Positions 3,668 through 32,800 are shown, counted from the stretch's first letter. The stretch is 64,000 nucleotides of DNA from Amphiscolops sp. MND2022 (GCA_964187785.1 OZ076409.1:68388001-68452000); one strand, 5' to 3'. The notes: generated by a model from the letters alone, not told the origin. Numbers and translations are program-made.

Positions 3668-4461
3668 TATACAACCGAGATGAAATATAGCAGTTTTTCG
3701 CTTTTTCTTGAAAGTCGTTTCTCCCTGAAATGTTTCTAATTTCCTGGCTTGCAACCAATGTTTTTGAGAGATAACTTGGTTTAAAATTAATATGCATATC
3801 CTCATGAATTATTTGAGTTTTCATAAGTTTTCGTATTGATACCGATAAGTTTCAAATTATGAAATAGGCTGTAGGAACTTTTTATTCAAAGGCTTCCTTC
3901 AACCGTGTAGTAACCTTTGGGAAGTTAAATTGGCGTGGAAATGGTTCTTTTGTTTGTGTATGAAGTGTTTTTCTTTTAAATAGCCAGATAATTGTTCATT
4001 ATATAAGTGTAGAATTTCGACAGTTTTCATTTTTTTTCAAAACTCCCACTCAATTTCTTCGGCATTGTTCCCTAGTTGGGAAATAAGCACCTCCAGATTG
4101 ATCCTAATGGAAATCATTTTGAGATTTTGATTTTGTTGAGAAATACTCGCTCGAAAGTAACGAAATTGTCACTTTGACTCTAATTATGGTTAAGTAATTT
4201 AATTACTACTTGGTTAAGGTTGATCAACATGGTTACGGTTAATTTACCAATTTTTTTCGAAAAGAACTTCGTCAAAAGTTCCTGAATAACCGTGGCCTGA
4301 ATAATTCAGGATGGAAATTATCTCTTTATTTAGCAGGTGCATTGCTTCAATAATAATGGCCAAAATAGGTTTTTGAATTGAGAAAGTTGGTCTGAACTCT
4401 CACAGAATATTCATAGTAATTGCATTACCGAACATTGCCAAATCAATTTTTCGTCAGAAAT

Positions 4462-5626
4462 AAGCCGGGACCGGCCCAAGTCGGCGCCATATCAAAAAAT
4501 AGCAAAAGGACTCCGAAGTGTCAAATTATTGATGAATTGAGGACCCTTTGGTGAGTTTTTTTTGAAAAAAGTCCCACAATGCCGAAAAAACTCGCCCGGT
4601 ATTGTATGTTGCGCGGAAAAAAGGATAAACATCTTTGGTTCAGTTACCTGGGCCAACAGGAACAATTTAAAATTTTGTAGAACTTTTGGTGGAATTATTT
4701 TGGTCACCTCAGGTGTATCGAAAAAACAAGCCGGGAACGGCCAAAGTCGGCGCTATATTTAAGGCTTAAAAAGCGCAAAGTTTCTAAAATATACATGGAC
4801 ATTTTTATGGAAAGCTTCGAGAACAGTTTCGAGACGCCCAAAGGGTGCCTTTCATTCTCAATAAGAGTCAGACCACATTTCCCGGAAACATTTTTTTTTG
4901 AAAAAATGGATTTTTTTCTTAAGGAAAACGTCGCATAGTGCCGAAAACCTTAGGAGTCTTCTGTGCTCGCAAAAACGATTCGTTCCTAGTAAAAGTTGAA
5001 GGCTGCCCTGTACAAGCAAGTTAGAAAAAAGTTACATGGAAAAAAACGCCAGCCTTAAAAAACATATCAGATATAGCGTGCTAATAAAACCTAATTTTAA
5101 GACGAAAAGTGATCATTTTGAAAAATCTTACAATGCCGAAAATTGGAAAAAAAGGGGAGCCTTTAGAATTTTTGGAAAAAATCAAAAATGAGAATTTTTA
5201 ATAGTCTTATAAAGCCGAAAAATGTAAAAGGGGGACTCTTTGGGATTTATTGACATTCATTCTGTAGCAAACTATCATAAAATTGAAGCGAGGCCCTTTG
5301 GCGCAATCAAAAATTTCTCGAAAGTCTTAGTGTCGAAAAACAAAGTTAAAATCAAGATAGCCAAAGGGGGATCCTTAGTATGTTGTCGAAGTTCTGGACG
5401 TTGTTTTTGTTTTTTTTTGCTTCGAATGTGGCTCTGACGCTTCGAGTTCGAGTACGTTTTGAACATTCAAGTTGTTGAACAAATGAACAAAAAAGTGGAC
5501 CTTACGCGATTAAAAACTACCCATTGTAAGAGTCGGGGCACTTTTCTTCAGAAGCGCCGACTAAAAACACTGACGGAAAGCCATGACTATAGTAGACACT
5601 TTTCTTAAGATAAGCGCTGACTAAAA
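4462..5626 (-). mobile_element. Helentron-associated non-autonomous element (HINE family A), with a second family-A copy nested at 4726-5567
   Basis: Plus strand reads (ac)AAG-hairpin-AAGTCGGCGC ... GCGC(C/T)GACTAAAA: asymmetric subterminal inverted repeats, terminal hairpin, A/T-run target and no TSD. Confidence 0.75.
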
Positions 5627-5659
5627 TGAAAGCTTCAATTTTTTGAACGGAAAAGTAAA

Positions 5660-6207
5660 ACAAGACGAGATCGTCTCAAGTCGGCGCCATATCTAAGGCT
5701 CAAAAAAATTCAAGGAACAACTATTGGAAACATTTGCAAAAAAATTTTTTTTCAAAAAAATTATTTTTTGAAATTTTTTTTTTCGAAACAAGTATTTTTT
5801 AAGTCGCACAATGCCGAAAAACTCAAAAAGAGGCCATTCAGGCTCATTAAACGTTTTTACAAACCGAAAACTTCAAAAAATGCAAGGGGGTACCCTTTGA
5901 TAGAATCCGAAAATTTTCGAAAAAAAGTCGCATAGTACCGAAAAAAAACCAAATAAAAAAAACGAAACGAAAAAAACCTTTGGTCTCGCATCTACTTTTG
6001 GAAGCATAAAAAATGTGGTTTAGTGCGAGAATCGAACCCACGATCTCCTGTTTCTCAGAAATTAGTTGAACAAATGTGAACAAATGAACAAAGATTGTAA
6101 GAAAAGTGGACCACTCAGTGAGATTGTCAACTGAAAAAAAAACAAAAAAAACTACTCACTAAGAGTCGAGCTTTTTTCCTCAAGGGAAAAGGCGCCGACT
6201 AAAAAAA
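5660..6207 (-). mobile_element. HINE family A copy
   Basis: ACAAGACGAGATCGTCTCAAGTCGGCGCC ... GGCGCCGACTAAAAAAA. Confidence 0.75.
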
Positions 6208-6980
6208 CAGTGGCAAGAAACATTATTGAACATAATTGATGCTCTTGAGATCTTAGTTGAACTTAGCGGAACTGTTTTGGTTATTTCGTCTGAAAAACAC
6301 AAAAGGCGCATTGGAACTGCGAAACTCTCCCTACACTGTTAAATCAAGATTTGTGATTTTTTCTTGAAAAATTATTGTTGAAAAAGATAACTGCCAAAAT
6401 TACCCAAATATGCGACCCTTCTTGCTCAAAATAAAGTTTTCTGAATTGTTTTCAAAGAAACACGAAGTAGCGAACCTCCAGTGAATAGGAAAAATCTCGT
6501 ACAAAGTACGAAACAGCCGAAAAAACCGTAGGTCGTTTCCACAATTTTTGAGAAAAATCGCATCATCTCCACATGCCCAAAAGAAAACTCTTGAAGCTCT
6601 GAAAATCAGTTTTTTAGAGAAAACCTCAAAAAGTAACATGTGTGAAAAAAATCCAAAAAATGTTTCGGCAAGTCACATAGCCTCAAATTTTTTTAAGTTT
6701 TCTTTTCTGGCAAAACGATTTGTTCAGCTGAAAGTCGAAGGGGGTCATTTGGAGGAAAAAATCGCATAATGCTGAAAGAACCACAGAGGTCATTTGGTCT
6801 CCTTTTACATTTTCAAGGGTTAAAAAATTTGGTAGAGTAGATAAATGAACCACGTACACTGAGAGAAACTCACTCACCACGCGAAGAGGCTCGCCCTAAC
6901 CTCTACGCAAAGTACTTTGGGTGCTACAAAAATTTCCCGTCAAAATTAAGATTTTCGTTTTTGGAGACTGCGAAATGTAA

Positions 6981-8068
6981 ACAAGCCGGGAACGGCAAAT
7001 GTCGGTGCCCCGCTCAAGGGTAAAAAGCACAGTTTTGAAATTTGCAAATTGACACTATGGTGAAAAATTCATCAAAGGCACAATGTTGGAAAATACCTGA
7101 ATGGGTAAGCATAAGTCTCGAAAACCGCTTTTCCTTAACATGAAACATCAAAGAACTGAATTTGTGGAAAAGGTCAATTTTTTCGAAAATGTTTTTCTTT
7201 GCGACAAAGGTCTCAAAGTCTCGAAGAAGGAACTTTAACCTCGGCAAACCTTTTTTCAGGTCAAAGAACGTTATTAAAGTGCAGGGTACTTTCGACCAAA
7301 TGGAATTTGACCCGAAAAACTTCCCACAGTGCCAAAGAAAGCTTGGGTCTTTTCCACAATCATTGAGAAAACAGAGGAGTTCCAGAGGATCAAACAATTT
7401 TTCAAAAAATATGTCATGGTGCCAAAAAACGCATATGAGGGGACCCTTTGGGCTATTTCATTATCCAGTTTTCATCATCAAAAGTTCGGATATAGCGTGT
7501 TGGGCCACATTGGAGCGCTTTGTTTCGAATATCGGCCTCCTCTTTAGTGAACCGCAACTTACTTCGGATATAACGTCAAAAATTCGAATAGTATTGATAT
7601 AAAAATATGGTGGAACTAATTTGCGAAAACCTAATTTCAGAGAAAAATGAAATTTTCCATAGTCTAATAGTGCCGAAAAATGTGGAAAATGTAAAAAGGG
7701 GGAAACATCCAATTTCTTGATCAAAGAAAGTCAACGAAATTGAATGGGGAACCTTTGGAGACATTGAAAATTTTTCGAAAAAGGTCACATAGTCCCCAAA
7801 AATCGAAAGGCTACCCTTTAGTCTCGTCCGGGTGTGTATGTTACGTTGAAAATCAAAAAAAAATGAAAGGGGAGCCCATTTGCACTGGCATAGATGCGTT
7901 TCGAGGTGTTCGTTTGGTTGAACAAACTGAACAAAAAATGTCCAAATTTAATGAAAAAAAATAGACAATGCAATAGCCGGGATCTTTTTTCTTACGAAAG
8001 GCCCTGACTGAAAAGAGTCACTGTAAGAGCTGGCTTTATTTGTTTACACAAAAATCGCCAACTAAAAA
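6981..8068 (-). mobile_element. HINE family A copy (diverged, possibly composite)
   Basis: ACAAGCCGGGAACGGC...GTCGGTGC start; CGCCAACTAAAAA end; shares internal ATAGTGCCGAAAAA and GGACCCTTT blocks with other copies. Confidence 0.6.
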
Positions 8069-8521
8069 CTTTTGCGAAAAACACGTACAATGAGCCATAT
8101 TTCATAGCTATAGCGTCGACTAAAACCCCAAGTGGAGCAATTCAAACTAGATTATAGTAAACAAAATCATGTTCACTGGCTGTTAATTATAGCGTTTGGT
8201 TACGCGTTAGGCGCAGCTGAAAAGCACAATTCAAAAACCGTTTTAGAAACACCGAGTCTTGAAAAAACGGAACAAGGGCCCAAGTCGGTACCCCGATCAA
8301 GGCTCAAAATGGTTTTTAAATATGAAAAGGGACACTAATGTGAAAAAAAATACAGTGCTGAAAACATTCAAAGAAAAACCAATAAGACTCGAAATCCGCT
8401 TTTTCCTGAATTAACAAAAAAAAACAATTTTTGATAAAATATTTTGGAAAGTCTCATAGTGCCAAAAAAAGAACTTTGAGCTCTCAAAAACCTTTTTTGA
8501 AGTCGAAAAGATTTATTAAAG

Positions 8522-8794
8522 TGTTTTAGGGTAGTTTCCAGTAAAGTAACGCCCTATTGTATAATTCAGTTTTCACTGTGAAGTGTATGTTTCAGGTAAA
8601 AGACGAGAAGCAATACTTTAAAGACCATATGGTGACTGAGCGGATCTCAAACTTCAAGCTCTATAATTTAACCAGTACATTATTTGTAAATATATAAGAT
8701 AAAATGTACAACTTGTTGGTAAAGTTTACGTCACTCATATGTTGTTTTTAATTTAGTGTTTTGTTCTTTGCTTCTTTGATTGAGCCCTGTCACA
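8522..8794 (-). repeat. 3' LTR of Gypsy 1 (273 bp)
   Basis: Near-identical to 13677-13954; by eye one 5-bp indel and about one substitution. Confidence 0.95.
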
Positions 8795-8909
8795 CTCCTC
8801 CTTCGTTTCTTGACGTTCAGTCATGAAATTGAACATAAATAATTTGGCTCTGTAAGTTTCTGTTGCTTCTAAGTTTTTCTATTTCCTTTAGCTGCTTCTC
8901 GTAGCTACT

Positions 8910-11900
8910 TTAGTTTTCATCCGTTGATGAACTGATAGTGATGATTTCGGGGAGTTGTTCTCCTTGTTCAACTCCACAGATCAAAACCGGGTTTCCGAAG
9001 TAATTTGGGGTTTTTCGTTCTCTTCTTGGTCTGTCGCTCGTTTGTTGACTTGCCGTTTCTTCTTCTGATTTTGGTTCTTCTTTTGGCTGTTTTTCCCAGT
9101 TTGTTGTGGCTTTTATTGGTGCCTTTTGTCGCCTCCTTTCCTCCTCTTCGTCGGTTGAGTCTGGTTCTAGTAGTTGTTGCCAGTTTTGTAGTCTGTGGAA
9201 CTCTTTTGGGAGTTTGGATTTTTTTCTTTTCATTCACTTTAGCTGGTTGTGGCTTTTTGATTGGTTCGCTGTCAGTGCTTGGTGTTCGTCTTTCCCATTG
9301 TGCGTCTGCGGTTGGTTGGCTTGTTGTAGCTTCTTGGTTTTGTGCTGTTCGCGCCTCATTTGTATTTGCCATCGCTACGTCTCGCTTGCTGTATATAGTT
9401 GGTCGCCGTTTCTTGCCGCTCACTGTGATTGTGTGATCTGTTTCTTTTGTGATCACCCCTTTTTTCTTCTTGTAGAGTCCGTCCAGCTTCGTACCTCTTG
9501 CACGTTCTCTCACCAGTATTTCCGAGTCTTGTTCCCCCGGAAAGTCTGACAGTTCCAATTGGAAGTTGTTGTCGTTTTCTGAAACATTGTAGTTATTTCT
9601 TGGTTTTGTAGTAATAATATCTTTTACAGTCGTGAATTTCCGATTGTTATGTAGTTCTGCGGCGCAAAGTTTATTTTGTCGTTTCGCACCTCTTAGTGCG
9701 TAGAGCATTTCTGATAATCCTGTGTTATCTTTTTCTAGTATTATTTTCTTGTTTGCTCGTAGTCGTTCGTTTATCGTCCTTATTAGTCTTTCGACTTTTC
9801 AATTACCTTTGTGGTCATTTACTGGGCATGTAATATGTTTTATGAAATATTTTTCGCAAAATTCTTTAAATTTATTGCTGGTAAAAGCTGTGCCGGGGTC
9901 TGTCCTTATTTGTTTGGGAATTCCGTTATCTGCTATATATCTTTGTAAAAATTCGATTACTTTTCGTGTTGTCGGTGCTCTTAGAAACTTTGCATCTTGC
10001 CATCCGGTTTTACTATCAATCGATACGATTAAGTATCTTTTTGAGCTTGCTGCTATTTTGAACGGTCCTGCGAAGTCGATTGCAATTTCATCGTTAGTTT
10101 CTTCCGGCGTTGGTATTTTTCCAAAATTATTTTGTTTTAATATTGGTTTTATCGACTTACCGGCTTCTTGGCAGTTTGGGCAGCTTTTGGCTAGAAGTGT
10201 GATGTCACGGTGAATGCGTGGCCACCAGATGTCGCTGATCTGTTGGAGCATCGCGTCTCTGCCGGGATGTCCCCAGTGTAACGAATTTTTGATTGGTGCT
10301 TGCAGTATTTTTGGGATTACGAGCCGGTCGTCGAGATTTAGTAAGTCGTTTTCGTCTAACGATAATGCTTGAAATCTTTCACGCCATGGGCTGTCTAAAG
10401 CCTTTATTTTCCCTTTTGTTGGATTTTTCACGATTCCGATAACTTTCTGTGAAAACTCGTCGTCTAGATAATTTGCGGCTAGTAAATTTTGTCCAATTTG
10501 GTTGGCGAACTTTAGTTTGGGTTGTAATTTACTTGAGACTTGATAAATACCAGTACCTGGTAAATTGTCTGCTGAGTAGGCTTGTCCCATTTTGTTGGCG
10601 GCGTTTGAATTTTCGTATTTCTTGCTTTCGCGTGCGTTTGATTGTTTGCCTTGTATTGGCCAATGTGCACTCTTACTTCGTTCGTCACTTCTTTTCAGCT
10701 TTAGCCAACTCCGCCCTCTGATTAGTTCGTTTAATTCATTCACTAAAACGGCATTCAAGTTGTTTACGTGTTTCACTGTGAACCATGTATTCCAAAGTTC
10801 AGTTGCTTTTACGCTTTCTCCTTCAATTGGTGATGGGTGGCGTGAGAGGTAGTCGGCGATTCCCATCGTTCTGCCTGGTGCATGGGCTATTTCAAATTCA
10901 AATGGGAGTAGGCGATCCACCCATCGTGTTAGTCGGCTTGAGTATGTTTTATTATTTTTATTTCCTTTAAGTACTGACGCCAGTGTTTTGTGGTCTGAAA
11001 TTATTTGGAATTTTGTTCCGTATAAATAATTTTTGAAATGTTCTATCGCCCATACGATGGCGAGTAATTCTAGTTCGTTTTAGAATATTTACTTTCTAAT
11101 GGCGTTAAAAATCTCGATGCGAAATGTATTGGTCTCCAGTTGTTTTCGTTATTTTCGTCTGTTTGTTGTAGTACAGCGCCTAATCCGGCTTTGCTTTCAT
11201 CGCAAATGATTCTGATTGGGCTGCTTCTTTTGAAGTGTCCTACTTCTGCGACTTGTCTTACTTTTTCATTTATTAGGTTAAATGCTTTGTCGTGTTTTTC
11301 GCCCCAATTCCAGGGTTGATCCTTTTTCCATAGTGGACGTGGTTCATGGCAAAGTTGCGCCAAGTTTGGTATGAACCGATTTAGTTGGTTCACTGCTCCT
11401 AGGTATGATCGAAGTTCTTTTAAACTTTTCGGTGTCAGTTTTTCCGTTATGGCTTGAACTTTGGAGTTTATTGGTTTTATTCCTGTTTGGGATAATTTGT
11501 ACCCCAACCAGTTGATCTCTTCCGCCGAAAATTTACATTTTTCCCGTTTTAGTCTGATATTAGCGTTATCTAGCTTTTTCAGAACTTGTTTTACTGTTTC
11601 GAAGTGTTTTTCCTTTGAGCCCCGTGTTACGATTAATATATCATCTAGAAACACGTATGTGTTTGGGATGTTTCCCAACTCTTGGTCCATGGCCCTTTGG
11701 AATTCTGTGGGCATTGTAGTGAGCCCATAGAATCCTGTTACGAACCTGTATGTGCCGTTGGCTTTCCCACCTATAATTTGAAAATTACAGTGTTTTGATG
11801 TTTCTTCATCAAGCGGCACTTGTCCATACGCGTAGCGCATGTCAAGTGATGTGTAAAGTGCCTTTCCGTTTTCTTTGTTGTCTAATTGCTCTGCTACTAA

Positions 11901-12872
11901 GTCAACTAAATGTTCAAGATTGGGCATTTGGTATTTATCTTTCACAACTTCATTATTCAATGCACGTGCGTCTAAAGAAATTTTCACACTTTTGTCTTTC
12001 TTCACTGTGATTACCACAGGTTGTATAAATTGTTTATCTGTCACTTCACTGACTCGTTCAATATGGCCTTCATTTAATAATCTTTCGATTCCGTCTTGTA
12101 CCGCGTCTTGGAGTTGGATCGGTACCCTTCTACCTTTTTGTTGTGTTATTTTGGCGTTTTGTTTAAATTCTATTTTTACTTTATGTTTATTTAGTTTTCC
12201 TTGCCGTTCAAATAATTCTTTAAATTGTTGTTTTAGTTTAGTTTGTTCATTTTGTTGGTCGTTCCAATTTTCTGGTTCAATGGTTTTGTTTGGTTTATCC
12301 AATTTAATTGGTTGTGTAGTTCCGCTTGTTATTTTACAAATAGTTCTTTTACCTTCGTTTTGATTGGGTTAGACGAATTTGTCGTTGAAGGCGTTCAGCC
12401 AGTCCCTTCCAATTAGTGATTTTGCGCCTCTTTCTGCTACCAATATTCCCGCCTTCTGTAGTTTGCTGTCTCCCACTTCCAATTGGCAGAATACATAACC
12501 CAGTAAGTTCAATTTTCGTTTATTGAAGTCCACGTACTCCTCGTCTTCCGGTAGTTGTCGTATGAATAAAGTTTTTCTTTTCATTATTCGTTTGATTTCT
12601 TCAATTTCGAATCTTGTTACTGGTGACCCTGAGTCAACCATTGTTTTGAAAGGATTGCCATTTATTTTTCCGCTCATTGAAAATTGTCCATTTTCATCAC
12701 CGTCTATTGTTAGCACAATTTTATCGTCTTCTATTGCTGATCCCGAACTGCTTTCTTCCCAATCATCTATTCTTTGGATTCTTTGTGGTGGCGGTTTTGT
12801 GATTTTCCGGCTTTTTGCAAAATTACCGGCTCCTCTGGTTTGGCAACATTTTGCAAAGTGGCCTTTTTCCAC
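8910..12872 (-). pseudogene. pol: Gypsy 1 pol: protease, reverse transcriptase, RNase H, integrase, long basic tail
   Basis: PR MVDSGS (ORF 12369-12872); RT LDMRYAYGQ...FLDD (ORF 11070-12302); RH CDES..GLGAVL and ADYLSR; IN HxxH..CxxC, IDFAGP, TDPG, KVER. Lesions: TAA at 12369-12371, frameshift near 11075, TGA at 9799-9801, probable frameshift near 9230. Confidence 0.92.
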
Positions 12873-13677
12873 ATTTCATGCATGTAATGCCCATTGCCTT
12901 ACACTCCTTTAGGTGTTGTGGACTGAATGGGGCTTCGCAACGAAAGCACTTTTTTGTTGGTCCCCACCGTTTGGTCTCTGTATTTATATTATTGATTTCG
13001 TTTGGTTCGTTTTTAATGTTTGGTTTGTCCAGTTTGTCAAATGTTTGTTGTCTCAGCGTTCCTTCTTCGTAGGCTATTGCGAATTGAATTGTATCAGCGA
13101 TTGATGTTTTGGGCTCTGTACATAATTTTTGTTGAACTTCTTTATTATTCATATTCACAATGAATACATCCTTCACCAAACTTTCAGTTATTGTCCCAAA
13201 ATTGCACTTCGCCGCCAGTCCGTTAAGTTCGTTCCAGAACTGTTTTAGCGTTTCGTTTTCGTTTTGTTTTCTGCTCAGGAACTTGAATCTATCCAGCGTT
13301 TCATTTTTTGGTTTTTCAAAGCAGTCTTTGCATTTTTGTAGTAGTTCGACCAAAGTGATTGTAGCGATATTCGTTGTCGGGAATTTGTCTGAAATCGTCT
13401 TCCTTGCTGCCATTCCTAGGGCTAGATAGAGTACGCTGTTGGCTTTCTTCATTGCCGTTGCCTCTTCCATGTCTCCCATGAGGCTTTTTTCTTTGGTACC
13501 TGTAGTTTTGATGAGTTCTGCTACAGAGATGTTAGTTTTTGCCATAAGGGCTACTTCAAATAGGTCTCTCCACTTTTCCCATTCTAATTCAGGGATTTTT
13601 GTTGCTTCTTGCCAAAAGAAGGGTAATCCCGCAATTGAAGAAGTTGATGTACTTGAAGAATTGGCTCGCAGCGCCAT
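12823..13677 (-). pseudogene. gag: Gypsy 1 gag with two Cys/His knuckles, frameshifted at ~12870 into the protease frame
   Basis: RFKFLSRKQNENETLKQF..LAAKCNFG capsid-like region; CFRC..H...C followed by CMKCGK/KGHFAKCC, split by an A-run deletion. Confidence 0.9.
13664..13676 (-). promoter_or_regulatory. Primer-binding site, tRNA-Ser-like
   Basis: TGGCGCTGCGAGC directly after the 5' LTR; complementary to a ...GCUCGCAGCGCCA 3' end of the kind found in animal tRNA-Ser. Confidence 0.75.
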
Positions 13678-13954
13678 GTTTTAGGGTAGTTTCCAGTAAA
13701 GTAACGCCCTATTGTATAATTCAGTTTTCACTGTGAAGTGTATGTTTCAGGTAAAAGACGAGAAGCAATACTTTATTGTATAGACCATATGGTGACTGAG
13801 CGGATCTCAAACTTCAAGCTCTATAATTTAACCAGTACATTATTTGTAAATATATAAGATAAAATGTACAACTTGTTGGTAAAGTTTACTTCACTCATAT
13901 GTTGTTTTTAATTTAGTGTTTTGTTCTTTGCTTCTTTGATTGAGCCCTGTCACA
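13677..13954 (-). repeat. 5' LTR of Gypsy 1 (278 bp)
   Basis: TG...CA ends, followed directly by the PBS on the minus strand. Confidence 0.95.
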
Positions 13955-16011: not shown

Positions 16012-16195
16012 TGTTGTATTCTAGCTTTATGGTTGAAGAAGTATTTCAGTACAAAACTCAATTGTTTTCTAGCTTACTATTCGAGCTATATGATTGTAGA
16101 TCATCTGCACTTAAGTGGCAGGTATTTAGACAAAAGAACATCAACAATACAAATAGCATATAGACTAATTAAGTTAATTGTCTGCACTCTCTACA
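16012..16195 (-). repeat. 3' LTR of Gypsy 2 (184 bp)
   Basis: Matches 21821-22013. Confidence 0.95.
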
Positions 16196-19100
16196 TTTCC
16201 CCTCTCACTATTGGCTGATGTTCGGCCAATGGGGTTCTGTTCTTCTGCTGTATGGCGGTAGTCCCTCCAATGGTCCAGTTGTTTGTGGACGGGTACCCGA
16301 TCCTCGCTTGTATGGTTGTCACGGTGAGCGTTTATCCGTGACGTCAGTTTGCTGTCCGTTGTATGGTCGAATTGGGGTTGTTTGTTTCCGTTTCCATTTG
16401 ACTCAGTGTTGCTTCCGAGTTCAGCCTTTCTACGATGTTTCCTGTAATCATGACATACTGGATTATTATATCTAACAATTGGGTTGGTTTTTGTTAGTCT
16501 TTTTGATCTGCGTATTGTTTTTTCTTCTTCGTGTTTAATGTCTGCTTCAAATTCGGTGCTAGAGCTCATGTTACTGATCAGGTCTAATTCAGAATTTTCA
16601 AAGTTGTTCTCTTCCCCCGTTTTAGGGAAAGAAGTCAGATTTTTAAACACCTTACCGTTATCATCTCTGATAAATAGTTCATCGTTCGCTTGTCTAGCGT
16701 CTTCGATAGCACGGTTGATCTCCGTGTCTGTCATGTTGGCGGCAGTGATGGTAAGCGGACCAGTGCTGCTCATCCCTCCTGGTGAGGATTGGTGGGGGCT
16801 TGAGCTCTTCCGGTCTCGTACTGATATCACTGGTCTGCCTCTGCCATACGTGCCCTTTTTCACCGTGGCGTTGTCTGATTGGTCCGTGGTGATTGGGTTG
16901 TTTGTCTCTCGTGGCGGTGTCTCGGTGTCTGATTCGATCACGTATGCCCTCTTCGGTTTTGATGGTGATCTTGTAAACCGGCCGTCTGGTCCTCTCGGCC
17001 CGGTTCCTCTGTTGTTGTTGCAATCCTGGTTAAAATCACAGATGGGTTTACTAATGGATTTCTTGTGTATTATTCTTCCGTTTGGCGTTGTTACGGTATG
17101 GTTCGTTTCCGAAATAGCTATATTCGGTTTATCTGTATATGCACTTTCGAATTTTGATTTCTGATGTTTTTTTCTAAGAAAAGGAAGGGTTGATTACTAA
17201 CTCCTTTATCGTTTTTTCTTGTCTTCATCGGTAGCTGGTCAGAGGCATCGCCAACTCCGCTGAATGAATATACCTGTAAGGTATCTGGTTTCGCTGAAAT
17301 GGAATTCTTTGTTAGATTTTTTAAGTTATCTAAGTTTAACAGATTGGATATTTCCGTGTTTGGTTTTCGAACGTAGTGTAGTTCGAATGCGGATTTCTTT
17401 AGTTTCGTGTGAGGTGTTTTTCTCATCACGTCTAATGACAAGTCTAAGGCTTTTCCTAACCGCTCGCCGGCCTTAATGTTCGTTAGAAGATTGTCTTTCA
17501 GAGTTCTGACCCCTCGTTCTACTAAGCCTGTGGGGGTGTGAATATACGGTGTTCCGTAAATCAGTTTGATGTAGTGTTTTTTGCAGGAATTGCGAAAAGT
17601 GCGGCCCGTGACTGCAGTTGCCTTATCTGTTCTGATTGTCTTTGGTATACCGTTCAGCTGAATATATTGTTCAAGAAATTTTACCGCCGTTTCCCCGTCG
17701 GTATATTTACAAAAACTGGCTGCCGGCTATTGCTGTACCGGTCAATTTACAAAAGTATATGAAATCGACGGTTGTTATCCGTGTATGGTCCGATGAAATC
17801 CAATTGGATTTCTTCGTTCGGGCTATTCACCGGGGGTAGGTTATTTTTTTTCGTGCTGGGTATGTTAGGTTTTATACTCTTACCGGACATTTTGCAGGGG
17901 ATGCAAGTTTCACATTTCTTTGGTATGGCTTCCGTCATCTTTGGCCACCAGAAGTGTCGAGCTGCCAAGGTCATCTTATTGATGGCTGGGTGTCCTTTGT
18001 GCAAAAGACTGATGACTGTGGTTCGGAGATTCTTTGGCAATATGATTCTGTCCTCCATGAAGACAAGACCGAACCGGCTGGATAACTTTCTTCGGACCAT
18101 TTGGTACTCGTCGGGTATCATTTCTTGTTTTTGTCTTTCGAGACATACCAGGGTTTTTAGCAGGCTGGGGTCATTTGTGGTCTCAGTCATTAATAGCTGT
18201 AAATCCGTGGAGAAGTTCTTTTCTGTCTCCTGCACTGCTTGTATTAGGTTCCAGTCGTTTTGCTCTTCGGCTGCAATTCTTGGTGCGTGTCCAATCTTTA
18301 CATACTGGACACTTTTTACCCCGACATATCGTGCCCAATTTATCGCTGGTACTTCTAGGACTGAAGGGTCTTGGTCTGTTTCTGAGTCGATCTCACCTTC
18401 TTCCATGGGGATCGGTGCGGAGGATGGGCCAGGTTTGTCCGGTTGGTGTTGTTGCACTGCGGTTGGTCGATCCATTTCCCAAAATGTGTCCACAAATTGC
18501 TCGGAGTAACCGGTTTGTGGTTGATAGCCCCCTTTGTGTTGCGGTCCGATAATTTGTCGAAGGTCTTCTGGTTGTCGATTACTGGTAAGTTGTTGTAATC
18601 GTTCCTCTATGACTTTCCTTTCGTTGCGAAGGAATTTGTGTTCATGGTAGCGTTTCCATCTCCCCCCGGTCATGCGATAAATTCCAGGTTTTACAATTTC
18701 TTTCCACCGAGTCGTTAGCTCGGTTATTTCGGCGGAATTAATTCTCGCTTTGATGTTTTCGATTGTTCTAGCATCCATTGTTAATGTGGTATGCTTTGAA
18801 TTATTCGATTTGTTTGGATTTGAGCGTGTGTGTACGTCGCTGTAAAGGCAATTAATGGCAGTTTGTTTACGCGTGTCGTTTGTCAATGGCTCGTTGTTTG
18901 ATTTGCGTTCGCTTTTCTCGGTACCGTTTTCTGATTGGCTCGTGTGGTTGCTAAGGCAACCGTATTTGGAGATGAAGCTGTAGTGTGGATTGATATTGTT
19001 GATTACGTATTCTTCGTCGTACGTGTCGTCCGCTTGTGGTGGTAATACCGGATTTCTGCTGAGATAATCCGTGAGTGCTAAATGTTTGCCGGCTATGTGG

Positions 19101-21753
19101 TTTACGTTGATCGTAAAATGTGCTAACCGGTCCAACCACCGTGTTAAACGTGCGCTATATGTTTTATTGGAACGATTTCGTTTAATTAATGGTTCTAATG
19201 CCTGGTGATCCGTCAAGAGTTTAATAGGTTTACCGTAAATATAGACGGAAATGTTCTAGGCCCCAAACTACTGCCAGTAATTCGAGCTCATTGATGGCGT
19301 CTTTTTTTTCTGTGTCTGATAGGAAACGATTTGCAAAACCGATGGGTTTTAGTGTTCCGTTTGGTTGTTCTTGCCATAAGGTCGCCCCTAGGCCTTTTGT
19401 GCTCGCGTCGGTTGTTATTACGTTTGGATAGTCGGAGTTGTAATGTGCTAGACACGGTATTTCCGTGATCTTTTGTGTTTTATATTTTCGAAAGCCAGTG
19501 TGTGTTCTTCCGTCCAGAGCCTTTGCTATTTTTTTTCAACAACTGTCTCAGACTGTCAGTTTGGGCGGAAAGATTGTCAATGTACTTTGACAGATACTGG
19601 ATGGCTCCCAGAAAGGATTTTAGTTCCTTTTCGTTGTTCGGTTGTTTTAGTTCTTTTATAGCCAGTAACTTGTCTTGTAACGGTCGGATTCCGGCTTGGT
19701 CTATCCGGTGACCGATCCTTTCAATTTCTGTTTTGAAAAATTCGGATTTTGTTTCGCTCAGTCTGTATCCGGCGTTTTCCTGTATCCGGCGTTTTCGAGC
19801 TTGGTTAGGACGTCGATTAATTCTTTCATGTGCTCTTCTTTGGATCCTTTCGTTACTACGATGATATCGTCTAACCATGCTGGGTGTTTTTTTTCCAGTG
19901 TCTGGTCGATCTTTTCTTGAAAGATCGTCGGTATATCCGCTAACCCGTAAAACCCTTTTAGGAAACGGTAGTAACCGGTGAAGTTTCCTCCGGTTACGGC
20001 GAATAAGCACAAGTTTCTGGCTGATTTTGAGAGTATGAGCTGACCGTAGGCGTAATCTAAATCGAATTTGGAGATCCAGATTTCGTCTGCTGGGCCATCT
20101 GCTATTTTTCTCGATATTCTCGAAATCAACTCCTCCATGTTCGGCCTTTGAGCTTTTCGTTTCACGGTTATTTCGTTTAGCTTTCTTGAATCTAACGCGA
20201 TTTTTACGGAATTATCTTTCTTTACCGTGATGACTGCTGGGCTTACGAAGCAATTTTCGTCGATATTATTGGCCTTTTCGATGTGGCCTTGTTTTATTAG
20301 CTTTTCTATTTCTTTTTCCACCGATTGTTGTAAATGTATCGGTATGGGTCTTCCTTTCTGTTGTATCAATTTTGCGTCTTCTTTCAGTTGTATTTCAACT
20401 TCTAGCACGTTTACTGTATGGTTTTCCTTGAACAGTTTTTTGAATATCGTTTTTAGTTTCGTTACGTCTGGGTCTTCTTTTATTTGGTGTATTTAGAGGA
20501 CGGTCGTACCGGTCTCCAGTGTTATTCCCAATTTTTCATCCAGTCCAAACCTAGCAAGGGGTTTGTTTTCTTGGTTGTTACTAAGAGCTCCAGTTCTTTT
20601 CGGGTTCCGTTAATTTCTACTTTCGCGGTTGTTTTCCCTTCAAATCGTATCCGGTTGTCATTCACGTCCCGGTATTCTGTTTCCAGGGGTCGTAATGGTG
20701 TTAACTTGTTGAATTGTGATTTTGGTATTAGCGTTACTGGTGAACCGCTGTCTATTATAAATTTGATTGGTCGGTTATTGACCAATGCAGTGACTGTGAA
20801 GAATTCCGGTCCGTTGCTGCTCATCGACCGGGTTGAGTGTATCTTTTGTTTTACCGAATGGATTGTGTTCGGTATCCAGTCATCTTCACCCGCGCTGCTT
20901 GTTTCGCCTTCCATTAGGTGGTTTACTCTTTTGTTTGCGCGGCAGCATTTAGCAAAATGGCCGATTTTGCCGCATTTTGCGCATTTCTTTCCTCTGGCGG
21001 GACATTCATGTTGGCGTGACCAGTTCGGTGCTCCGCAACGGTTGCAGTCGATCTTTTTAAATTTTGCCGGTTTTTCTGGTTGTTCTTTTTTGGTTTTTGT
21101 TTTTCGTTTGTTTACATATCGGATTATCTTCTCTTCCTCTGTTTCGGGTGAGTCGTTTAATTTTTCATACATATACTCATGTATTGCATCAGTTATGGCT
21201 TCTACCGACATGTCACTCTTTCTGATTTTCTTTTTTAGGTCGTAATCACCGGTTGATTTACCAATAAGTGACAAAAATTTTGAAGCGAGAAGTTGTGCTG
21301 CGGTAACTGTTTCAAATTCGCAGTTCTTTTCTACTTCTACAGTACAGTTTTCTACTTTCTACTTTCTACTTACAGTTTGTATAATGGTAATGAGCTCGGT
21401 TCTCTTTCCCTGACCGTCTTTGTCATCTCCGTGATAGCATTTTGTCCGATTGCCCAAATAAAAATGTCTTTTATATCTGTTTCGAGTTGTTCACGGTATT
21501 GTGGTAGGATTTCTTTACTGTTCGTCATGGTTGACAAATCTATATCTTTCGTCATTTTTATGTATTGGACGAATTTTCTCCACCACATGCTTGCATTGGC
21601 TTGGTCTTGTTTTTCTAGCGTGGGAATGGTGAGCTTCTGGGAGCAGGTCCGGTCTACCGTCCTGTTCATTGTGTCGATCGGTAACATTTGTCCGTCTCGT
21701 TGTGTTCCCGCTGACGTCTGTGTGTTTTCTCCGTCTCCCGTATTTTCTTCCAT
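16174..21753 (-). pseudogene. pol: Gypsy 2 gag-pol, fragmented
   Basis: gag 21370-21753; knuckles CNRC..H.C and CAKCGKIGHFAKCC plus PR FIIDSGS (20522-21274); RT FDLDYAYGQ...WLDD (19758-20408); RH TDHQAL..RW...TDYLSR; IN HKGH...CETC, LDFIGP. Many frameshifts, including a 17-bp duplication at 19763-19796. Confidence 0.92.
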
Positions 21754-21820
21754 ATTGAATGGTTAATTTCTCTTTTTGGTGTAAATCGTGTATAGCTTTA
21801 AAGCTATTCTGACTGCGCCA

Positions 21821-22013
21821 TGTTGTATTCTAGCTTTATGGTTGAAGAAGTATTTCAGTACAAAACTCAATTGTTTTCTAGCTTACTATTCGAGCTATAT
21901 GATTGTAGATCATCTGCACTTAAGTGGCAGGTATTTAGACAAAAGAACATCAACAATACAAATGTAGTAAATAGCATATAGACTAATTAAGTTAATTGTC
22001 TGCACTCTCTACA
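21821..22013 (-). repeat. 5' LTR of Gypsy 2 (193 bp), with tRNA-Ser-like PBS at 21809-21820
   Basis: TG...CA ends followed directly by TGGCGCAGTCAG. Confidence 0.93.
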
Positions 22014-22107
22014 CCCCTTGAGGTTAATATAATTTAATTTATACTTGCTGCAGGTTTAATTATGTTCAAAACGGTGCAATTATTCAGTCCAATGACTGGC
22101 TGTGCAA

Positions 22108-22599
22108 GCAAGACGGGAATATCTAAACTCTGCGCTATACCTAAGACCCAAACAGTGCAGTTTTTAAATATGCGCAGGACGTTTTTTTTGAAAAACACAA
22201 AAAGTTTCGAATTTCGAAACAGTCTTATAGTTCCTGAAAACGCAAAAAAGAGGGGATCTTTGTGTATTTGTATCATCCAGTTGGGCGCAGTTAATTAAAA
22301 TAACGAAAGAGAGGACCCTTTGGTGACATCAAAAACACTCGAGAAAAGAGTCTCTCAATGCCGAAAAATCAGTAAAACTAAACCCTTTGGGTTGTCTAGT
22401 AACGAAAAAAGCTCTGAAAACTATGGCACTTAAAGGTGGCACCCTTTGAAATCACCCGAGATTGCTTTCTAGTGAGGTAAAAAGTCCTAGAGAAATTGTG
22501 TAAAAAGTGGACGTTTCAGTTTGATGCCTGTTGTCTGGAGAAAAAAGGTCACTATAAGAGTGACATTTTTAGTTTCACAAAAAGTGCCGACTAAAAAAA
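22108..22599 (-). mobile_element. HINE family A copy (diverged)
   Basis: CAAGACGGGAATATC start, GTGCCGACTAAAAAAA end. Confidence 0.65.
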
Positions 22600-23160
22600 C
22601 GGTTTTTAGGTATTTAGCGATGCTCCTGCAACTGTAAATTTTCCCGCAAACAGTTAAAAGGTTGACCTGTCTCCTGGGTCACCGGATCGAATGAAAATTC
22701 GGGGCTGACATCTCGTCAGGTGAAAATATGCAGAAGGAAATTTCGCAATTCTAGATGTATTTTTAGCAACAATTTTGATTGTACACTTATCTCTCCACAT
22801 GTTGCGCTATTTGGACCAATATATTTACTTTTGCTACAGAAAAAAACTTGACCTTAGTGATCTATCATCATTCCAGCTGACACTGGGGTAAAAAATATGA
22901 AATTCCATCTAACGTCAACACTCTTGGTCGTACTGCAAATTGGTTACAGACTGTTTCATGCTTGAGTCATTTCAGATCGTCTCAAAAAAATTTCCTGAAT
23001 TTGTCAAGATTACGACAATAAATTCGATTGAGATTGTATCGTTCATAGTTTAAATCTGGACGGACTTGACATCTGCAGATAATCTGTACCGTACAATGTA
23101 ACAATCATAAATGCATAGTACGGAATTTTCGTAGCAATTAGAAAAGTAGAGGTAGGACAA

Positions 23161-23765
23161 ACAAGACGGGAACGTCTAAAGTCGGCGCTATATCTAAGGC
23201 TCAAAAAGCGCAGAGTTTTCTAAATATGCCCAGGATGTATTCATGAAAAGCTTTGAAAACACTTTCGAGACACCCAAAGTGTGCCTTTCATGCTTGATAT
23301 GACTGGAAAATCACTTTTCCCGACTGGAAACAAAAAAATTAAAAATTTTTTTCGAAAAAAACTTCGAAAACGTCACATAGTGCCGAAAAATGAAAAAGGG
23401 GGACCCTTTGGGATTCATTAACATACTTTCTGTTGCAAAATATCAAAAAATCCGAAGGGGGGACCCTTTTGAGACATTAAAAATTTTCGAAAAAAAAATT
23501 CGCACAGTGCCGAAAAAAATTGAAAGGGGGACCCTTTGGAGTCTTCCGGTTTTGTAGGTTACGTAAAAAAGGTAAAAAACGAAAGGGCGGACCCTTTCCA
23601 GTAAGTTTGCATTGGTCGAACTTGGCCTGCGTGAACTTATCAGTTTCTGTAGAAAGTGGTACATACGCGATGAGCTCTATGGTCTGACGAAAAAAAAAGA
23701 AAAAAAAACTAGCCACTGTAATAGTCGGGCTTTTTTCCTTAAAGGAAAATGCGCCGACTAAAAAC
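23161..23765 (-). mobile_element. HINE family A copy
   Basis: ACAAGACGGGAACGTCTAAAGTCGGCGC ... AGTCGGGC..GCGCCGACTAAAAA. Confidence 0.8.
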
Positions 23766-26849: not shown

Positions 26850-29800
26850 GTAACACTTTTTTCAGAGAAACCTTCAGAAAATTTTGTTTTGCTGTTTAAG
26901 CAATGAACCGAGTTTAGAAGAATTAGTTTGGTTTGCTCATTATTTGGGTATAAAATGTAGAACAACAAACGCATGAAAAGACGAAAGTTTTATGCAAACA
27001 TCCAATAAGTTCTTTGCATGAGAAATTCTAGTTCGCGCACTTGAGAACAGATTTGCAACATGGTGCAGAGACCTTCGTTGTCCACTTTGTCCTCTTGTCA
27101 TGATCTTGCCCCTTTCATGCTCCTGGTGTGGTATAGCCAACATAGTTAGATGGCTAGACGGTAATGAAAGTGAACTACGTGCCAAAAACGGTGACCTAAA
27201 ACATCCTCATTACACTATGATGCTACCATTGATTTCAGTTAGGTTGATGCACTGATGATACACGTTGATTTTACTCAATTCTTAATCTGAAGAAGTCTTA
27301 GAAATTTCTCTTTTCTATCAGTCTATTACATGGCGCAGTCAGCATAAAACACAAGAAGACATGGATTCTACGATTGAACCCAATGTACCCGATCAGACAG
27401 CTACAAATCAAACTACAGTCATAGAGAGAATGAAGAAAAACAAATACAAAATACCGATCCCCTCGCACTGAGAAACGGACTTGACCAAAATAAACCCGAG
27501 GATGTGGTGGGAGCAAATTTTAGAGTACATCGACCTCACATACCGGATAAACCTAGATGAATTGATCAAGGGTGATGTCATTTGGGCACAGGGCACACGA
27601 ATTATTGAGAGGCCAATGGGGAAAAAACAGAAAGATAACAGTCTACAGGAACTGTTAAAATTATTCAAAAAGACATTCCAACCCACAAGAAACGTATTTC
27701 ACAGTAGAGCCCAGTTCTTCAATATCAGACAAAAAGATAACGACACATTAGACGAGTATTGGAAAAGATTTGTGAATATTGAAAGAAAATGCGAATTCAA
27801 CAGAATTACACTTGAAGATACTATTACCTACAAATTCGCAGCAACCATAAATGACCGGAAAGCGCGGGACAAATTCATCAAGGGGTCATTTAAATTACAA
27901 TTTCTACTTGAAACTATCGAATTAGACAACTACAACCGTAAGTACGGAGATTAAAAGTCCAAGCAAAAGAAACAGCGAAGACCGTCGTCAGACAGCTTAT
28001 CAGACGGAGAACAAGTTGCTTAAACCAAGCAGATACGGAAAAGACAACTAATGACAGGGATAAAAAGAAACAAGCTTAGCACGCTATATCCGAATTTTTG
28101 ACGTTTTATCCGAAGTAAAGATGCGTTTCACTAAAGAGGAGGTAGAGGTTCGAGAACATTGCGTTATATCTGAATTTTTGATATTATATGCGTACTATAC
28201 TATAAACGTTAATGACGTTGTTAACGTCATTTATGTTATAAATGTCATTATTGATGGAAAACAATTTTGGAAGCCAATTATTTGTTAAGAGCTCTCACAG
28301 AAAAAGCAAGTATTTCGTCCAATCGGTGAGCATCCAGGGTGAAGCTGGTTGATAACTGCTCGGAAATGGTCGTTTTCAAGACAACAAAATTAAATGTTGC
28401 ATGCGAAAAAGAATAGGCCCACAAAATCATCAAACCTGGTCTTGTCTTCGGATGTGGTTTTGACAGTAACACCTTCAATTTTCGGCTGTTTTGCCCCACT
28501 GGGTCCAGCAACTTCTGTGATTTCACTATTGCCATTCGCTACGGACGGGCGGTCCGAAGTATGTTTTTAGAAATGTTTTTTCAAGCGCTGTGGTACACCA
28601 GCAAACTCTCAAACACAATGTCTGCTCTTTCTTTATTGTCAGTTAACCTGTCGAATTCTCCCCATATGGGATTTAACTTTTCGACCAGCCGTTAGAATCT
28701 GAAAATGCCTAAATGACTTTGTGAAAAATGACAATTAAAAAGTCATTTTTTTATTTCTCCAAAAAAAGGGAGCATAGTGTAGTGGTTAGAGCGTTCGTCC
28801 TGTACTGGGGCGGTATCAGGTTCGAATCTCTCTCAAATCACCATTGTTGTGCCTCAAGCAAGTCTTTCATTCCTAGCTTAGTGTTATGGCCAGTGACAAA
28901 AAATAACGCATTTAGCGGGAAAAGCAAAATAAAAAGAGTAACGATGAGCAGTCAGACCTTTGAGACCTTGAGCAAGTCACTTTGAAACCACAGCGCCGAC
29001 TTATTAGGCGTCCACCCGCGGAATTGGGGAAATAAACACGAATAAATGACGTCATTAATGACACGTCATAAATGTACGCTGTTATTTTTGGTCCAACACT
29101 GTAACTATATTACCTTTTACTGAGGAGGTGGAGGAGGAGGATGCGTAGGTTCAAAAAAGTGTTGCCAAATCTCAGCACGCTTTATCCGAACTTTTGAGGC
29201 GTTTTGCGAGCACAAAAGTCCCCTTTGAGCGTTTCGACACTTTTATGGTTTTTCATAAGAAAGTCCTGAGCATATTTTACAAGTTGTGGTAACTTACCAC
29301 AAATAATGGTTCATATACGTTTTAAAGTATTCGAGGAAGTTCTTGCCCCCTATTTGAGGCGAAAACTCAAAAAAAAACTAAATAGCGTACATTTTTGGCC
29401 GTTCTTTCCATTTCTGCTGAATGAGTTAACGCAGGGTCCGACTCTGTATGTTGATCGCACAGCGACAACCCATATCATGCGACAACTCATATCAGGCGAC
29501 AACTCATATCATATATTGAAATCGAATGAGGTGCTAACTGATGCTAACTTGCAATCAATTAACTCATCGCTCAAAGAGCGTCTTGGTCAATTTGATCACC
29601 CATTAGTGACTAATAACATTATTACACCAAATGAACGTTGAATTAACTAACCTGTATCAAAATCCGGAAGTTTTGCGTTGCTAGAAAGGTCTAGCGAACA
29701 TTTTTGAATTTCAAACTACTTTTGATCTTTTTAATTTCTAAATTAGGTATTGTTTGTGTTTCATTTCAATATGGATCTGAGTTGTCGCTTGATATGAGTT

Positions 29801-32800
29801 GTCGCCTTCTCGATTTGATATGAGTTGTCGCTTGATATGAGTTGTTGCTTGATCTGAGTTTTGTCATTTTCGGTGTCAATTTAAGACATTTACGTTCAGA
29901 ACATTGCAATTATCTCTTCATAAAAGACTCCTGGACAACCAATTTTTTCCTTTAAATTATTCCAATCCACGAAGTCTGCCGCAACTTTAACAAAAATGCA
30001 TAAAAACTTTGAAAGGTGGAAAATTTTCGGTTTTTGTCATGATGGTGTCAATTTGGAACATTTTCATTTAAAAAATGCAATAAACTTTTCGGAAAAGACC
30101 ACTGGACAACCAACCGTTTACTTTCTGACCCTTTTAAACATTCTAATCCACAAAGTCTATCAAAAATTTGACAAAAATTGCATAAAAACGTTAAAAATCG
30201 GGAAATTTTGGAATTTTAGTCATCGTTGGGGTAACTTTTCTTTTTAAAAACCGCATTTATATCCTCATTGAATACTATTGGAGAACGAATTCGTGCCTTG
30301 TTGAACGTTTTCAACATTCTAATACACGATGTTTATCGAAAAAAGGACAAAAATTGCATAAAAACGTTGAAAATTGTGAAATTTTTAACTCTTTGTCATT
30401 TTCGGGGTCATTTTGGGTCATTATGGGGTCATTTTTGTCATTCCCAAAAATGTCCAAAAATCTCTACAAATACATATCGTACGAAGCTAAATTTACGTGA
30501 GTTGAATTCTATGGGTAACGCCTTTTAAGATGAACATAAGTTTCGTGCGTGGCAAATTTTGTAAAAAAAACCGTTTGATTTAAATATTCTCCTTTCCCAT
30601 ATGAAAGATGGGCGGAGAATAACAATCGTTTTTCAAAAAAGTTTCTGACTTGTGGAATCCACTATCTAACGAAATCAAGAAAAATTGACTACAAAAATGG
30701 GAATTAAAATATTCGTTCAAATATTGGAATGCGAGGTTAAATTGAAATTCTCCGACCTATAAAGAAGAAAAGTGCTGGCTTGAGTTCAGATTCACTTAAC
30801 AAAAAGTGTGATAGTATTCGTATAATTTGTCACATTTTTAGTCGGCGTTTTCGAACTTAGGCCGTTCCCGGCTTGTTATCTTTTCAACTTTCAAATTACT
30901 AAAATTATATACCCACACCAATATTACTTACTTACTTACTTACTTGCTTACTTGAACGTCATTTTTTAAACGTCATTTTTGTTTTTACTTTTCGATTGAC
31001 CTTCATCTATTTTCTATTCTGACCAAAGTTGCCTTACATTGTGTAAAAGCGTTAAATTAGGGCTAAAAACGATTCACAATACCTTTCGTGTTTTCAGTCG
31101 TTGCGGAAATTGCCAATAGCGTTTTATCTTTGAAATTTGAGAAGAAAAGTCTAAGAAAAATTCAAAGCTTGTTTTTTTTTGTATTTTTGACCTTTAAAAA
31201 CACAGGGCCGACTTGTTATGTTTCACCATAACTTTTTTCTCAGAGTCACAGGGGTGGATAGCAAAATGATGAAAATCATAATTGACGAGATCTATGGAGA
31301 AGTGTACCATCTCAGTGATGTCACGGAAGCTCTGAGTTTGTTAGAAGCCTCCAAGAGACTGCAAGTGGACGAAATTACAGTGAAGTGCATCAACCACATT
31401 GTCAATGTTAGTCTGCGCTTGCTGGAGTGGATAATTTTTTTAAATTTTAGGAATCAATGGAGTGGGAAAAAAGAGCAGTTGAAGTTGGTTAGATTTTGAA
31501 TCTTCACAGGTTTAAAAATATTACTTTTGAGAGTCCGCCAATATCTCCAGGACAGGAACCCATTGATAGGAGAGCTATTCCTGTGATTCGTATCTCCGAA
31601 GGTTCTTTAACCTTTTTTCGTAGCTAATTCAGTTTTTTACGGGTTTTGAATTACGTAAAAGAGGCTAGCCTTACGTAAAAGAGGCTAGCAAAAAGAACGA
31701 GTTAGTTTACAAGAAACTCCGTAACTCGGTCACCAGTGAAATTCGGAAAGCTAAACGATCCTATTATGACAGAAAAATCAAAAACGTGTGCAATTCAAAA
31801 GAATTATTCAACTGTTTTAACCATTTTTGTGGGAAAGAAACCAAGAAACAAAGAGAAGTAGACGTTGAGAAATTTAATGATTTTTTTGTAAGTATTGGAA
31901 AAAAACTTGCAAATGAGTGTAGTGAATCCTTACCCAATGTTGACTTCGACTCGGACGGACCTGTTCAAACTTTCGCTCTCTTCGAGACAGATGCATCTGA
32001 AGTTTACAGTATAATCAAACACCTAAAGAACAAAATTTCTTCTGGTCATGATGGCATCTCTAATAAACTTTTGAGGCTTGCGGCATCTTCAATTAGTCAA
32101 TTTTTAGCCAATATTTTCAAAGAGTGTAAAAAAGATTCAAAGTTTCCTAAGTCTATGAAAATTGCGAAAGTTCTTCCGCTTTTAAAGAATGGTGATTTTT
32201 CCCTACCGGATAATTATCGCCCTATTAGTCTTTTGACTTCGCTGAGCAAAATTTTTGAAAAACTCATTCACAAACGTATAACAAAATTTTTGGCGAAGCA
32301 TAAACTACTAACTCCCAAACAATTCGGTATTAGAGAAAATTTTTCTTGTGCACATGCAATTGCAGAAATCACTGAATTTTCGAGAAAAACAATTGACAAA
32401 AAACACTATGGCTTGGCAGCTTTCATTGATTTAAAAAAAGCCTTTGATACCGTTGATCACAATCTTCTTATTAAAAAACTAAATAGCTTTGGACTACGCG
32501 GTCAAATTGAAAATTTGCTCAGAGATTACTTATCTGATAGAGAACAATTCGTATTTTCGGGTAATCAAAAGTCTTCATCGAGGAGCATTGATTGTGGAGT
32601 TCCACAAGGTTCAATCTTGGGCCCACTCTTGTTTTTGATATACATAAATGATTTGCCTGAAACATGTAAGAATTCAAACATGGTTCTTTTTGCTGATGAT
32701 ACCGCAATTGTAACTTCTAAAAGCTGTAGAAATGTAACAAAAGATGTAGAATTGGATCTAGAAAGCATGAATCAATGGTTTTCGGTTAACAAAATGACTG

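Follow-up and report, generated by a model that had tools for sequence, protein, structure and literature searches.

How does a retrotransposon that carries gag and pol in one reading frame supply its integrase? In the standard model, Ty3/Gypsy and retroviral integrases are obtained only by cleavage of a polyprotein. A sequence-only reading of a 64,000-nucleotide stretch from Amphiscolops sp. MND2022 (the window) departed from that model: it pointed to an array of promoter-like motifs within the pol gene of a Gypsy element, in the spacer between RNase H and integrase, and suggested that integrase may be made separately from a subgenomic RNA. Comparison with related proteins now argues that a real, clade-wide conserved feature occupies this spacer. 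We favour, with a probability of roughly two in three, its interpretation as an internal TATA-less, CCAAT-driven promoter that would produce a subgenomic mRNA for free integrase beside the polyprotein form.

The element concerned (element 1; coordinates of all features are given in Table 1) has the domain order protease, RT, RNase H, integrase. The copy is a recent insertion, yet broken. Its LTRs are identical at 271 of 273 aligned bases, apart from one 5-nt indel, and the pair is flanked on both sides by the 5-bp target duplication CTTTA; two frame changes (near 12865 and 11080) and two stops (near 12369 and, in the integrase part, at 9799) interrupt it from gag to the integrase core. The open frame from 9799 to 11079 contains the end of RNase H and the H2C2 and rve domains. 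The stretch from the integrase tail to the 3′ LTR has no separate long sense-strand ORF, and hence no env ORF. We take the primer-binding site to be of tRNA-Ser type, and this site and the single ORF presumably reflect a likeness to the Mag clade. In both Gypsy elements of the window an ATG is built from the LTR end and the primer-binding site (13664-13680 and 21808-21824, minus strand); in element 1 it is the start of gag.

Table 1. Features of the two Gypsy elements (positions are those of the window)
Feature	Position	Strand	Remarks
Element 1, Ty3/Gypsy LTR retrotransposon	8522-13954	minus	5.4 kb
5′ LTR, element 1	13677..13954	minus	TG...CA
Primer-binding site TGGCGCTGCGAGC, element 1	13664..13676	minus	
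gag-protease-RT-RNase H, element 1	10840..13677	minus	single ORF in intact relatives
Hydrophobic strand after RNase H	10765..10785	minus	putative, RT/IN protease-site-like
Inserted, hypervariable, in-frame spacer, element 1	10490..10764	minus	about 80-90 codons beyond ordinary gypsy linkers
Upstream CCAAT-type box CTAATCAG	10718-10725, box to 10728	minus	one mismatch here; element conserved across the clade
GC box GGGCGG	10711-10716	minus	adjoins CCAAT box
Second CCAAT ATTGGCCAAT	10655-10664	minus	palindromic
CACGCG(AAA), CACGCGAAA	10626-10634	minus	CpG-rich, E2F-like
AATTCAAA	10604..10611	minus	TTCAAA at 10604-10609
Kozak-like AACAAA-ATG-G and MGQAYS	10573..10596	minus	AACAAAATGG at 10587-10596
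Met-initiated integrase, element 1	8968..10590	minus	~30-aa linker, N-terminal extension domain, HHCC, catalytic core, C-terminal tail
Purine tract before 3′ LTR, element 1	about 8795-8809	minus	
3′ LTR, element 1	8522..8794	minus	
Element 2, Gypsy of a different family	16012-21963	minus	
Spacer motif region, element 2	18776..18940	minus	
CCAAT box AGCCAATCAG, element 2	18931-18940	minus	
CACGCG, element 2	18870-18875	minus	
AATTCAAA, element 2	18795-18802	minus	8-mer identical to element 1
Kozak ACA-ATG-G, element 2	18778	minus	
Folded ~66-aa domain starting at conserved Met, element 2	18581..18778	minus	predicted model

The spacer is long by the standards of the superfamily. From the D.LSR motif at the end of RNase H to the first zinc-binding His there are 192 aa in element 1 and 175-409 in its relatives; among other gypsy proteins (146 proteins) the same stretch measures 95-125 residues in 32 of the 36 rows scored. 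An RNase H tree built from 41 rows (53 had been picked, of which 12 lacked the block) unites the 30 long-spacer rows in one clade with support of 100/97; it includes no named references and gave long-branch warnings among the outgroups. For the comparisons below, relatives of the element 1 region (family 1) are the best 120 of 220 proteins and those of the element 2 region (family 2) the best 120 of 382, and spacers were delimited in 77 and 72 of them, the remainder, truncated or missed by the pattern, being dropped. These relatives are proteins, so their DNA motifs are back-inferred, actual DNA being that of two copies, both broken; they are also kin and come mostly from ENA records, so that the counts do not amount to independent observations and the number of host species behind them may be small. 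Searching by pattern for the DNA of relatives produced 105 and 303 hits among metagenome contigs and 44 among viral ones, of which not one was confirmed.

Spacer length and sequence vary greatly among the relatives, and intact ones are single ORFs (1269-1683 aa and more) that run through the spacer with integrase in frame with RT. ORF ends are not enriched in the spacer (3 in 6959 codons vs 14 in 12811 downstream). Of 177 clade proteins, 155 have ahead of it a strand of the F/Y-x-[VI]-N-x-[IV] type, whose counterpart in element 1 is a putative RT/IN protease site. An in-frame spacer preceded by a protease-site-like strand indicates that the polyprotein route to integrase persists and that an internal route would be additional. 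The departure from the polyprotein model cannot therefore be one of replacement, and we rejected the possibility that integrase is made solely from an internal RNA, the spacer being open in relatives.

All six motifs of the proposed array are present on the minus (sense) strand of element 1. None of 3000 dinucleotide-shuffled versions of the segment had them all, a figure that alone proves little because the motifs were picked after looking. There are 11 copies of TTTGAA/TTCAAA in element 1 and 8 of perfect RRCCAATCRR in the window; therefore no single motif is rare, and the list alone could be chance. Each element has a further perfect RRCCAATCRR on the minus strand of its integrase tail, at 9266 and 16884, and element 2 has another at 20772, in the protease region. 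Neither spacer segment contains a TATA box, and both are moderately CpG-rich, in the top 4% and 8% of windows of their respective elements. The upstream box CTAATCAG looks decayed in this copy, encoding Leu where 20 of 20 near relatives have Pro. Conservation of the GC-box codons (I-R-G-R) at 0.9-0.95 is restricted to the near family, and the second CCAAT is kept in part (Pro 0.71 in the near family). The octamer AATTCAAA could be an inverse CHR or an initiator-like element and likely marks the start region. Downstream of the upstream box no ATG precedes the one at 10590, which comes 135 nt later and lies in the open frame of integrase.

Element 2 provides a fairer test than shuffles of element 1. 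Four motifs named from element 1 are all found in its spacer, a combination that none of 3000 dinucleotide-shuffled segments reproduced (rates for the single motifs were 0.02, 0.19, 0.15 and 0.04), and their order, CCAAT box, CACGCG, TTCAAA, Kozak ATG, is common to both spacers between RNase H and integrase. The box reads AGC CAA TCA GAA, and the in-frame Kozak ATG is again the first ATG after it, 160 nt downstream; the ATG-free run from box to start has a chance probability of ~0.17 per element. In both elements AATTCAAA lies ~20 nt before the ATG and may be a plain initiator. An ‘ordered layout’ pattern matches only the two spacers within the window and was left uncounted, since it was written with both in view. 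The 143-nt LTRs of element 2 are 100% identical though its coding region is broken several times, with no evident target duplication, a combination that transposition of an already defective copy, or recombination, may explain.

The window holds other mobile sequences. A decayed Bel/Pao LTR element (44299-47787) has Peptidase_A17 and H2C2 matches and LTR-like repeats that are 86% identical; a 629-aa reverse transcriptase ORF at 31669-33558 (plus) is probably from a non-LTR element, and an isolated gag-like fragment at 27541-27921 (plus) has 30% identity to family-2 Gag. Two dispersed repeat families, one of ~176-nt tandem units in both orientations and the other a 48-69-nt repeat of 7-9 copies with possibly MITE-like ends, lie at 29859-30570, 38217-39175 and 49674-50465, and at 4458-8309, 22106-23227, 36182 and 62966.

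The main evidence for selection on DNA, as read from the relatives' proteins, is frame-independence. The binding consensus of NF-Y is RRCCAATCR, and a word of this type is kept a short way upstream of the start, with one mismatch in element 1. Spelled in two frames it yields two different peptides, containing P-I or Q-S. The P-I form, [QEKGRW]-P-I followed by a purine-start codon, is found in 66 of 77 family-1 spacers (best 120 of 220 relatives) and in 18 of 20 cluster representatives, where 500 shuffles gave a mean of 1.2 and a maximum of 5; it is the majority form in all 20 clusters. In family 2 (best 120 of 382 relatives) the P-I form is missing from all 72 spacers and [NDSG]-Q-S is present in 60, in 9 of 11 representatives (shuffle mean 1.5, maximum 5) and as the majority form in 11/11 clusters. 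The third frame, [TA]-N-[QR], is used in two further clusters, 4/4 in each. The residue before the core is almost always one whose codon provides the two purines of the word, being Q/E/K/G in 67/70 cases in family 1 and N/D/S in 57/63 in family 2, against background shares of 0.35 and 0.29, respectively, in family 1. Per 1000 residues the footprint occurs 9.3 times in spacers, as against 2.6 times in RT-RNase H and 2.2 times in integrase tails, and in a scan for which no motif was specified beforehand Q-S and P-I, the latter level with the common K-S, were the most widely kept spacer dipeptides. That a single DNA word persists in more than one frame argues for an element of the DNA rather than for a protein motif.

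The CCAAT footprint is absent from several branches (0/9, 0/8 and 0/6 in three clusters), and one of these clusters (0/9) lacks any footprint. Elsewhere among the further branches, which were drawn from 24 protein matches and their cluster members, x-D-V-[IT] recurs (4/4, 5/5 and 3/6); back-translated it is TGACGTCA-like, which we take to be CRE-like. One branch has G-C-Y-[SD]-N in its spacer (5/8; proteins P0494-P0497, P0559-P0572), which presumably could spell the palindrome of the RFX X-box; RFX is linked to ciliated and sperm cells. In another branch F-H-F-Q-x-x-M ends a long hydrophobic in-frame stretch (P0480, P0483, P0484, P0490), which may be a T-rich intron that, with its acceptor, is translated in frame, or a genuine membrane segment within pol. 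The CRE-like, RFX-like and acceptor-like footprints, spotted post hoc and back-translated, are leads.

A conserved start codon accompanies the box, the first in the predicted RNA and in frame with integrase. In family 1, 48 of 52 segments (best 120 of 220 relatives) have a Met 22-46 codons downstream of the box, a count with some circularity built in, since the Met scored was the first one lying 20 or more codons past the box. The equivalent figure for family 2, 43-58 codons in 61 of 62 segments (best 120 of 382), was independently anchored; here only 3 in-frame Met occur in 3035 box-to-start codons, vs 1.4-1.5% elsewhere, a scarcity that gives no probability because the sequences are related. 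A Kozak-like context, with K/T/I before Met, is seen in 37/48 and 55/61 segments of families 1 and 2. The family-2 Met is invariant in 37/37 aligned rows, chosen from the best 120 of 382 and with a first row that began there, and it opens a confidently modelled ~66-residue domain (pLDDT mostly 70-87 across residues 1-70, 58 at residues 31-40). In the model of element 2 this domain is a helix-helix-hairpin-helix, followed by a long low-confidence stretch and then the integrase domains. Fold comparison gave nothing clear for it, the top result having Z 6.2 with an rmsd of 4.6 across 63 residues; viral matches with E under 0.001 were likewise lacking, as were Pfam and Atlas matches, although an absent fold match does not make the fold new. 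In family 1 the Met precedes a linker of ~30 residues and then the integrase N-terminal domains, whose best fold matches, to Ty3 and foamy-virus integrase, are weak (E 0.01-0.3); Atlas matches for this region are to generic integrase clusters only, and low confidence in the spacer of the model is uninformative, since the RNase H fragment is also low. The product of this Met would be the whole integrase. Of the proposal of a separate route to integrase, comparison supports a CCAAT-type DNA element and an in-frame Met that are conserved clade-wide ahead of the complete enzyme.

A conserved box need not be a promoter for integrase. It could be a genuine DNA element that acts as an internal enhancer for a short LTR, or that drives an antisense or non-coding RNA, the Met being incidental or an old N-terminus of integrase. 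The LTRs are indeed short (273-278 nt in element 1 and 143 nt in element 2) and lack a perfect RRCCAATCRR, the second CCAAT word of element 1 is palindromic, and CCAAT boxes work in both orientations. We consider this reading unlikely, since the footprint is kept in one orientation, 22-58 codons from a conserved Kozak-like Met, and in-frame Met are scarce between the two.

Somewhat less probable again is that the integrase isoform is real and arises by splicing, in cis from the LTR or in trans, or by internal ribosome entry on the genomic RNA. The acceptor-like motif of one branch (4 proteins; 5/5 cluster members), which a seemingly T-rich stretch precedes, a weak acceptor-like CCTTTACAG 70 nt before the element 2 ATG, and the precedent of foamy virus, whose Pol is made from a spliced RNA (PMC7828637), lend this some credit. 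However, the 120 nt before the ATG of element 1 are T-poor and contain no pyrimidine tract or splice acceptor, and splicing leaves unexplained why a CCAAT word is conserved in three frames. The acceptor branch has an upstream Q-S footprint too (5/5), a combination that fits a promoter plus a 5′ UTR intron. Least probable of the three is protein-level constraint or chance, with P-I-K/R and N-Q-S as polyprotein linker or docking motifs and the DNA motifs a product of A-rich codon use: the spacer is kept open, other near-family spacer residues match Gly2 and Ser6 in conservation and the relatives' DNA words are back-inferred from proteins, but two branches keep different peptides for the same DNA word, Leu, Val or Met is never the majority in place of Ile in scored clusters (19/20), and the flanking residues G, E, K and Q are chemically unlike, yet share codon purines.

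Two further suggestions concerned the character of the putative promoter and its product. Met-Gly with Ser/Thr at position 6 is the substrate consensus of N-myristoyltransferase, and the MGQAYS start had been read as such a signal, dependent on a free N-terminus. MGxxxS/T occurs in 17 of 21 near relatives that span the Met (Lys before Met in 21, Met in 19, Gly2 in 20 and Ser/Thr6 in 20), whilst position 4 takes six residues. The pattern is found in 3 of 20 family-1 clusters and is absent in family 2, which begins Met-Asp in 54 of 61 segments. Conservation thus extends across the clade for the Met and the CCAAT footprint and is confined to the near family for Met-Gly, and myristoylation as a clade-wide trait was rejected on these counts. 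Within the near family the start pattern fits an N-myristoyltransferase substrate, and the free N-terminus of its integrase may be myristoylated, a suggestion to which we give not quite even odds.

The other suggestion was that the motifs follow the CCAAT plus E2F/CHR layout of cell-cycle promoters. In its favour, the TTCAAA footprint is enriched in both families (27/48, null mean 15.7, maximum 26; 50/61, null mean 19.1, maximum 31) and that of CGCG exceeds shuffles (22/48 and 41/61), all counts being over related sequences. The codons of the E2F-like site vary in the near family, and TTGGCGG abuts the inverse CHR in element 1 and not in element 2. Promoters of the CCAAT and CDE/CHR type are likewise TATA-less, with upstream CCAAT boxes and TTTGAA or its inverse TTCAAA near the start; in them CDE/E2F lies 5′ of CHR at a tandem spacing of 4 nt, and CHR-only promoters exist (PMC3287175). 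Unlike in that arrangement, the E2F-like CACGCGAAA of element 1 lies 16 nt from the CHR hexamer on its opposite side, and other branches have CRE-like or RFX-like footprints. The cell-cycle reading of the spacer is weak.

Our preferred reading, an internal promoter for integrase, can be set out as follows. The ancestor of the clade would have gained an insertion between the end of RNase H and integrase that acts as a TATA-less RNA polymerase II promoter, within which, as comparison of the relatives suggests, the CCAAT-box word is held at the DNA level whilst the surrounding peptide drifts. Transcription directed by NF-Y and CpG-rich sites would begin near 10605-10615 and end within the 3′ LTR, giving a capped subgenomic RNA. 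Scanning ribosomes would begin at the first Kozak in-frame ATG, the conserved one, to give a free, complete integrase, and the gag-pol ORF, open in the relatives, would still yield particle-borne integrase on processing. In the last and weakest step, the second form would serve timing and place rather than amount, because integrase and Gag already come 1:1 from an element with a single ORF. If the transcript exists, our tentative first choice, just short of an even chance, is that it supplies newly made enzyme for integration, with a host-type control that is independent of the LTR. Ranked next, by analogy, and doubtful, is a regulator similar to Ty1 p22.

Several known systems share parts of the scheme proposed here. 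One is the Penv promoter of Oikopleura Tor3b/4b, a precedent for a promoter within the pol of an LTR retrotransposon; the Tor3b RNA is capped, unspliced, begins inside pol and is independent of the LTR (PMC4402516). Tor Penv serves a separate env ORF after pol, in contrast to element 1, which has no env ORF, starts in an in-frame spacer before integrase and would make a product that overlaps the polyprotein. The Ty1i RNA of yeast, source of p22/p18, is likewise reported to start internally; its product is the C-terminal portion of a polyprotein, in the same frame, and acts in copy-number control (PMC8458377, PMC4551931, PMC5408680). It differs in belonging to Ty1/Copia, in starting in GAG and in giving a Gag fragment, whereas here the element is Ty3/Gypsy, the product would be whole integrase and the promoter would lie in a dedicated insertion. 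The element 1 system is a member of neither the Tor env nor the Ty1i type. Foamy viruses also uncouple enzyme expression from Gag by a subgenomic RNA, which in their case is spliced from the LTR and encodes all of Pol, from whose precursor integrase is still cut (PMC7828637). In plant Ty1/Copia elements with one ORF, a conserved subgenomic short GAG RNA rebalances the proteins; unlike the RNA proposed here, it arises by splicing and early termination and raises Gag rather than integrase (PMC5580714). In the literature searched, which takes in few subscription journals or Repbase reports, we found no report of an integrase-specific internal promoter or of a myristoylated integrase.

If true, the internal promoter for integrase would add a new route of integrase expression, in which integration is timed apart from particle production, and would place promoter DNA under double constraint inside an open frame; a myristoylated integrase would itself be unusual. 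A wider reading, which we regard as rather unlikely as a whole, is that an undescribed, envelope-less Ty3/Gypsy clade depends on a second integrase mRNA from an in-frame promoter cassette in pol. Its branches would have swapped host-type control modules (CCAAT and GC box, CRE-like, RFX X-box-like, 5′ UTR intron) and N-terminal additions (a myristoylation signal, the 66-aa domain), giving integrases that are tissue- or cell-cycle-timed and differently localised.
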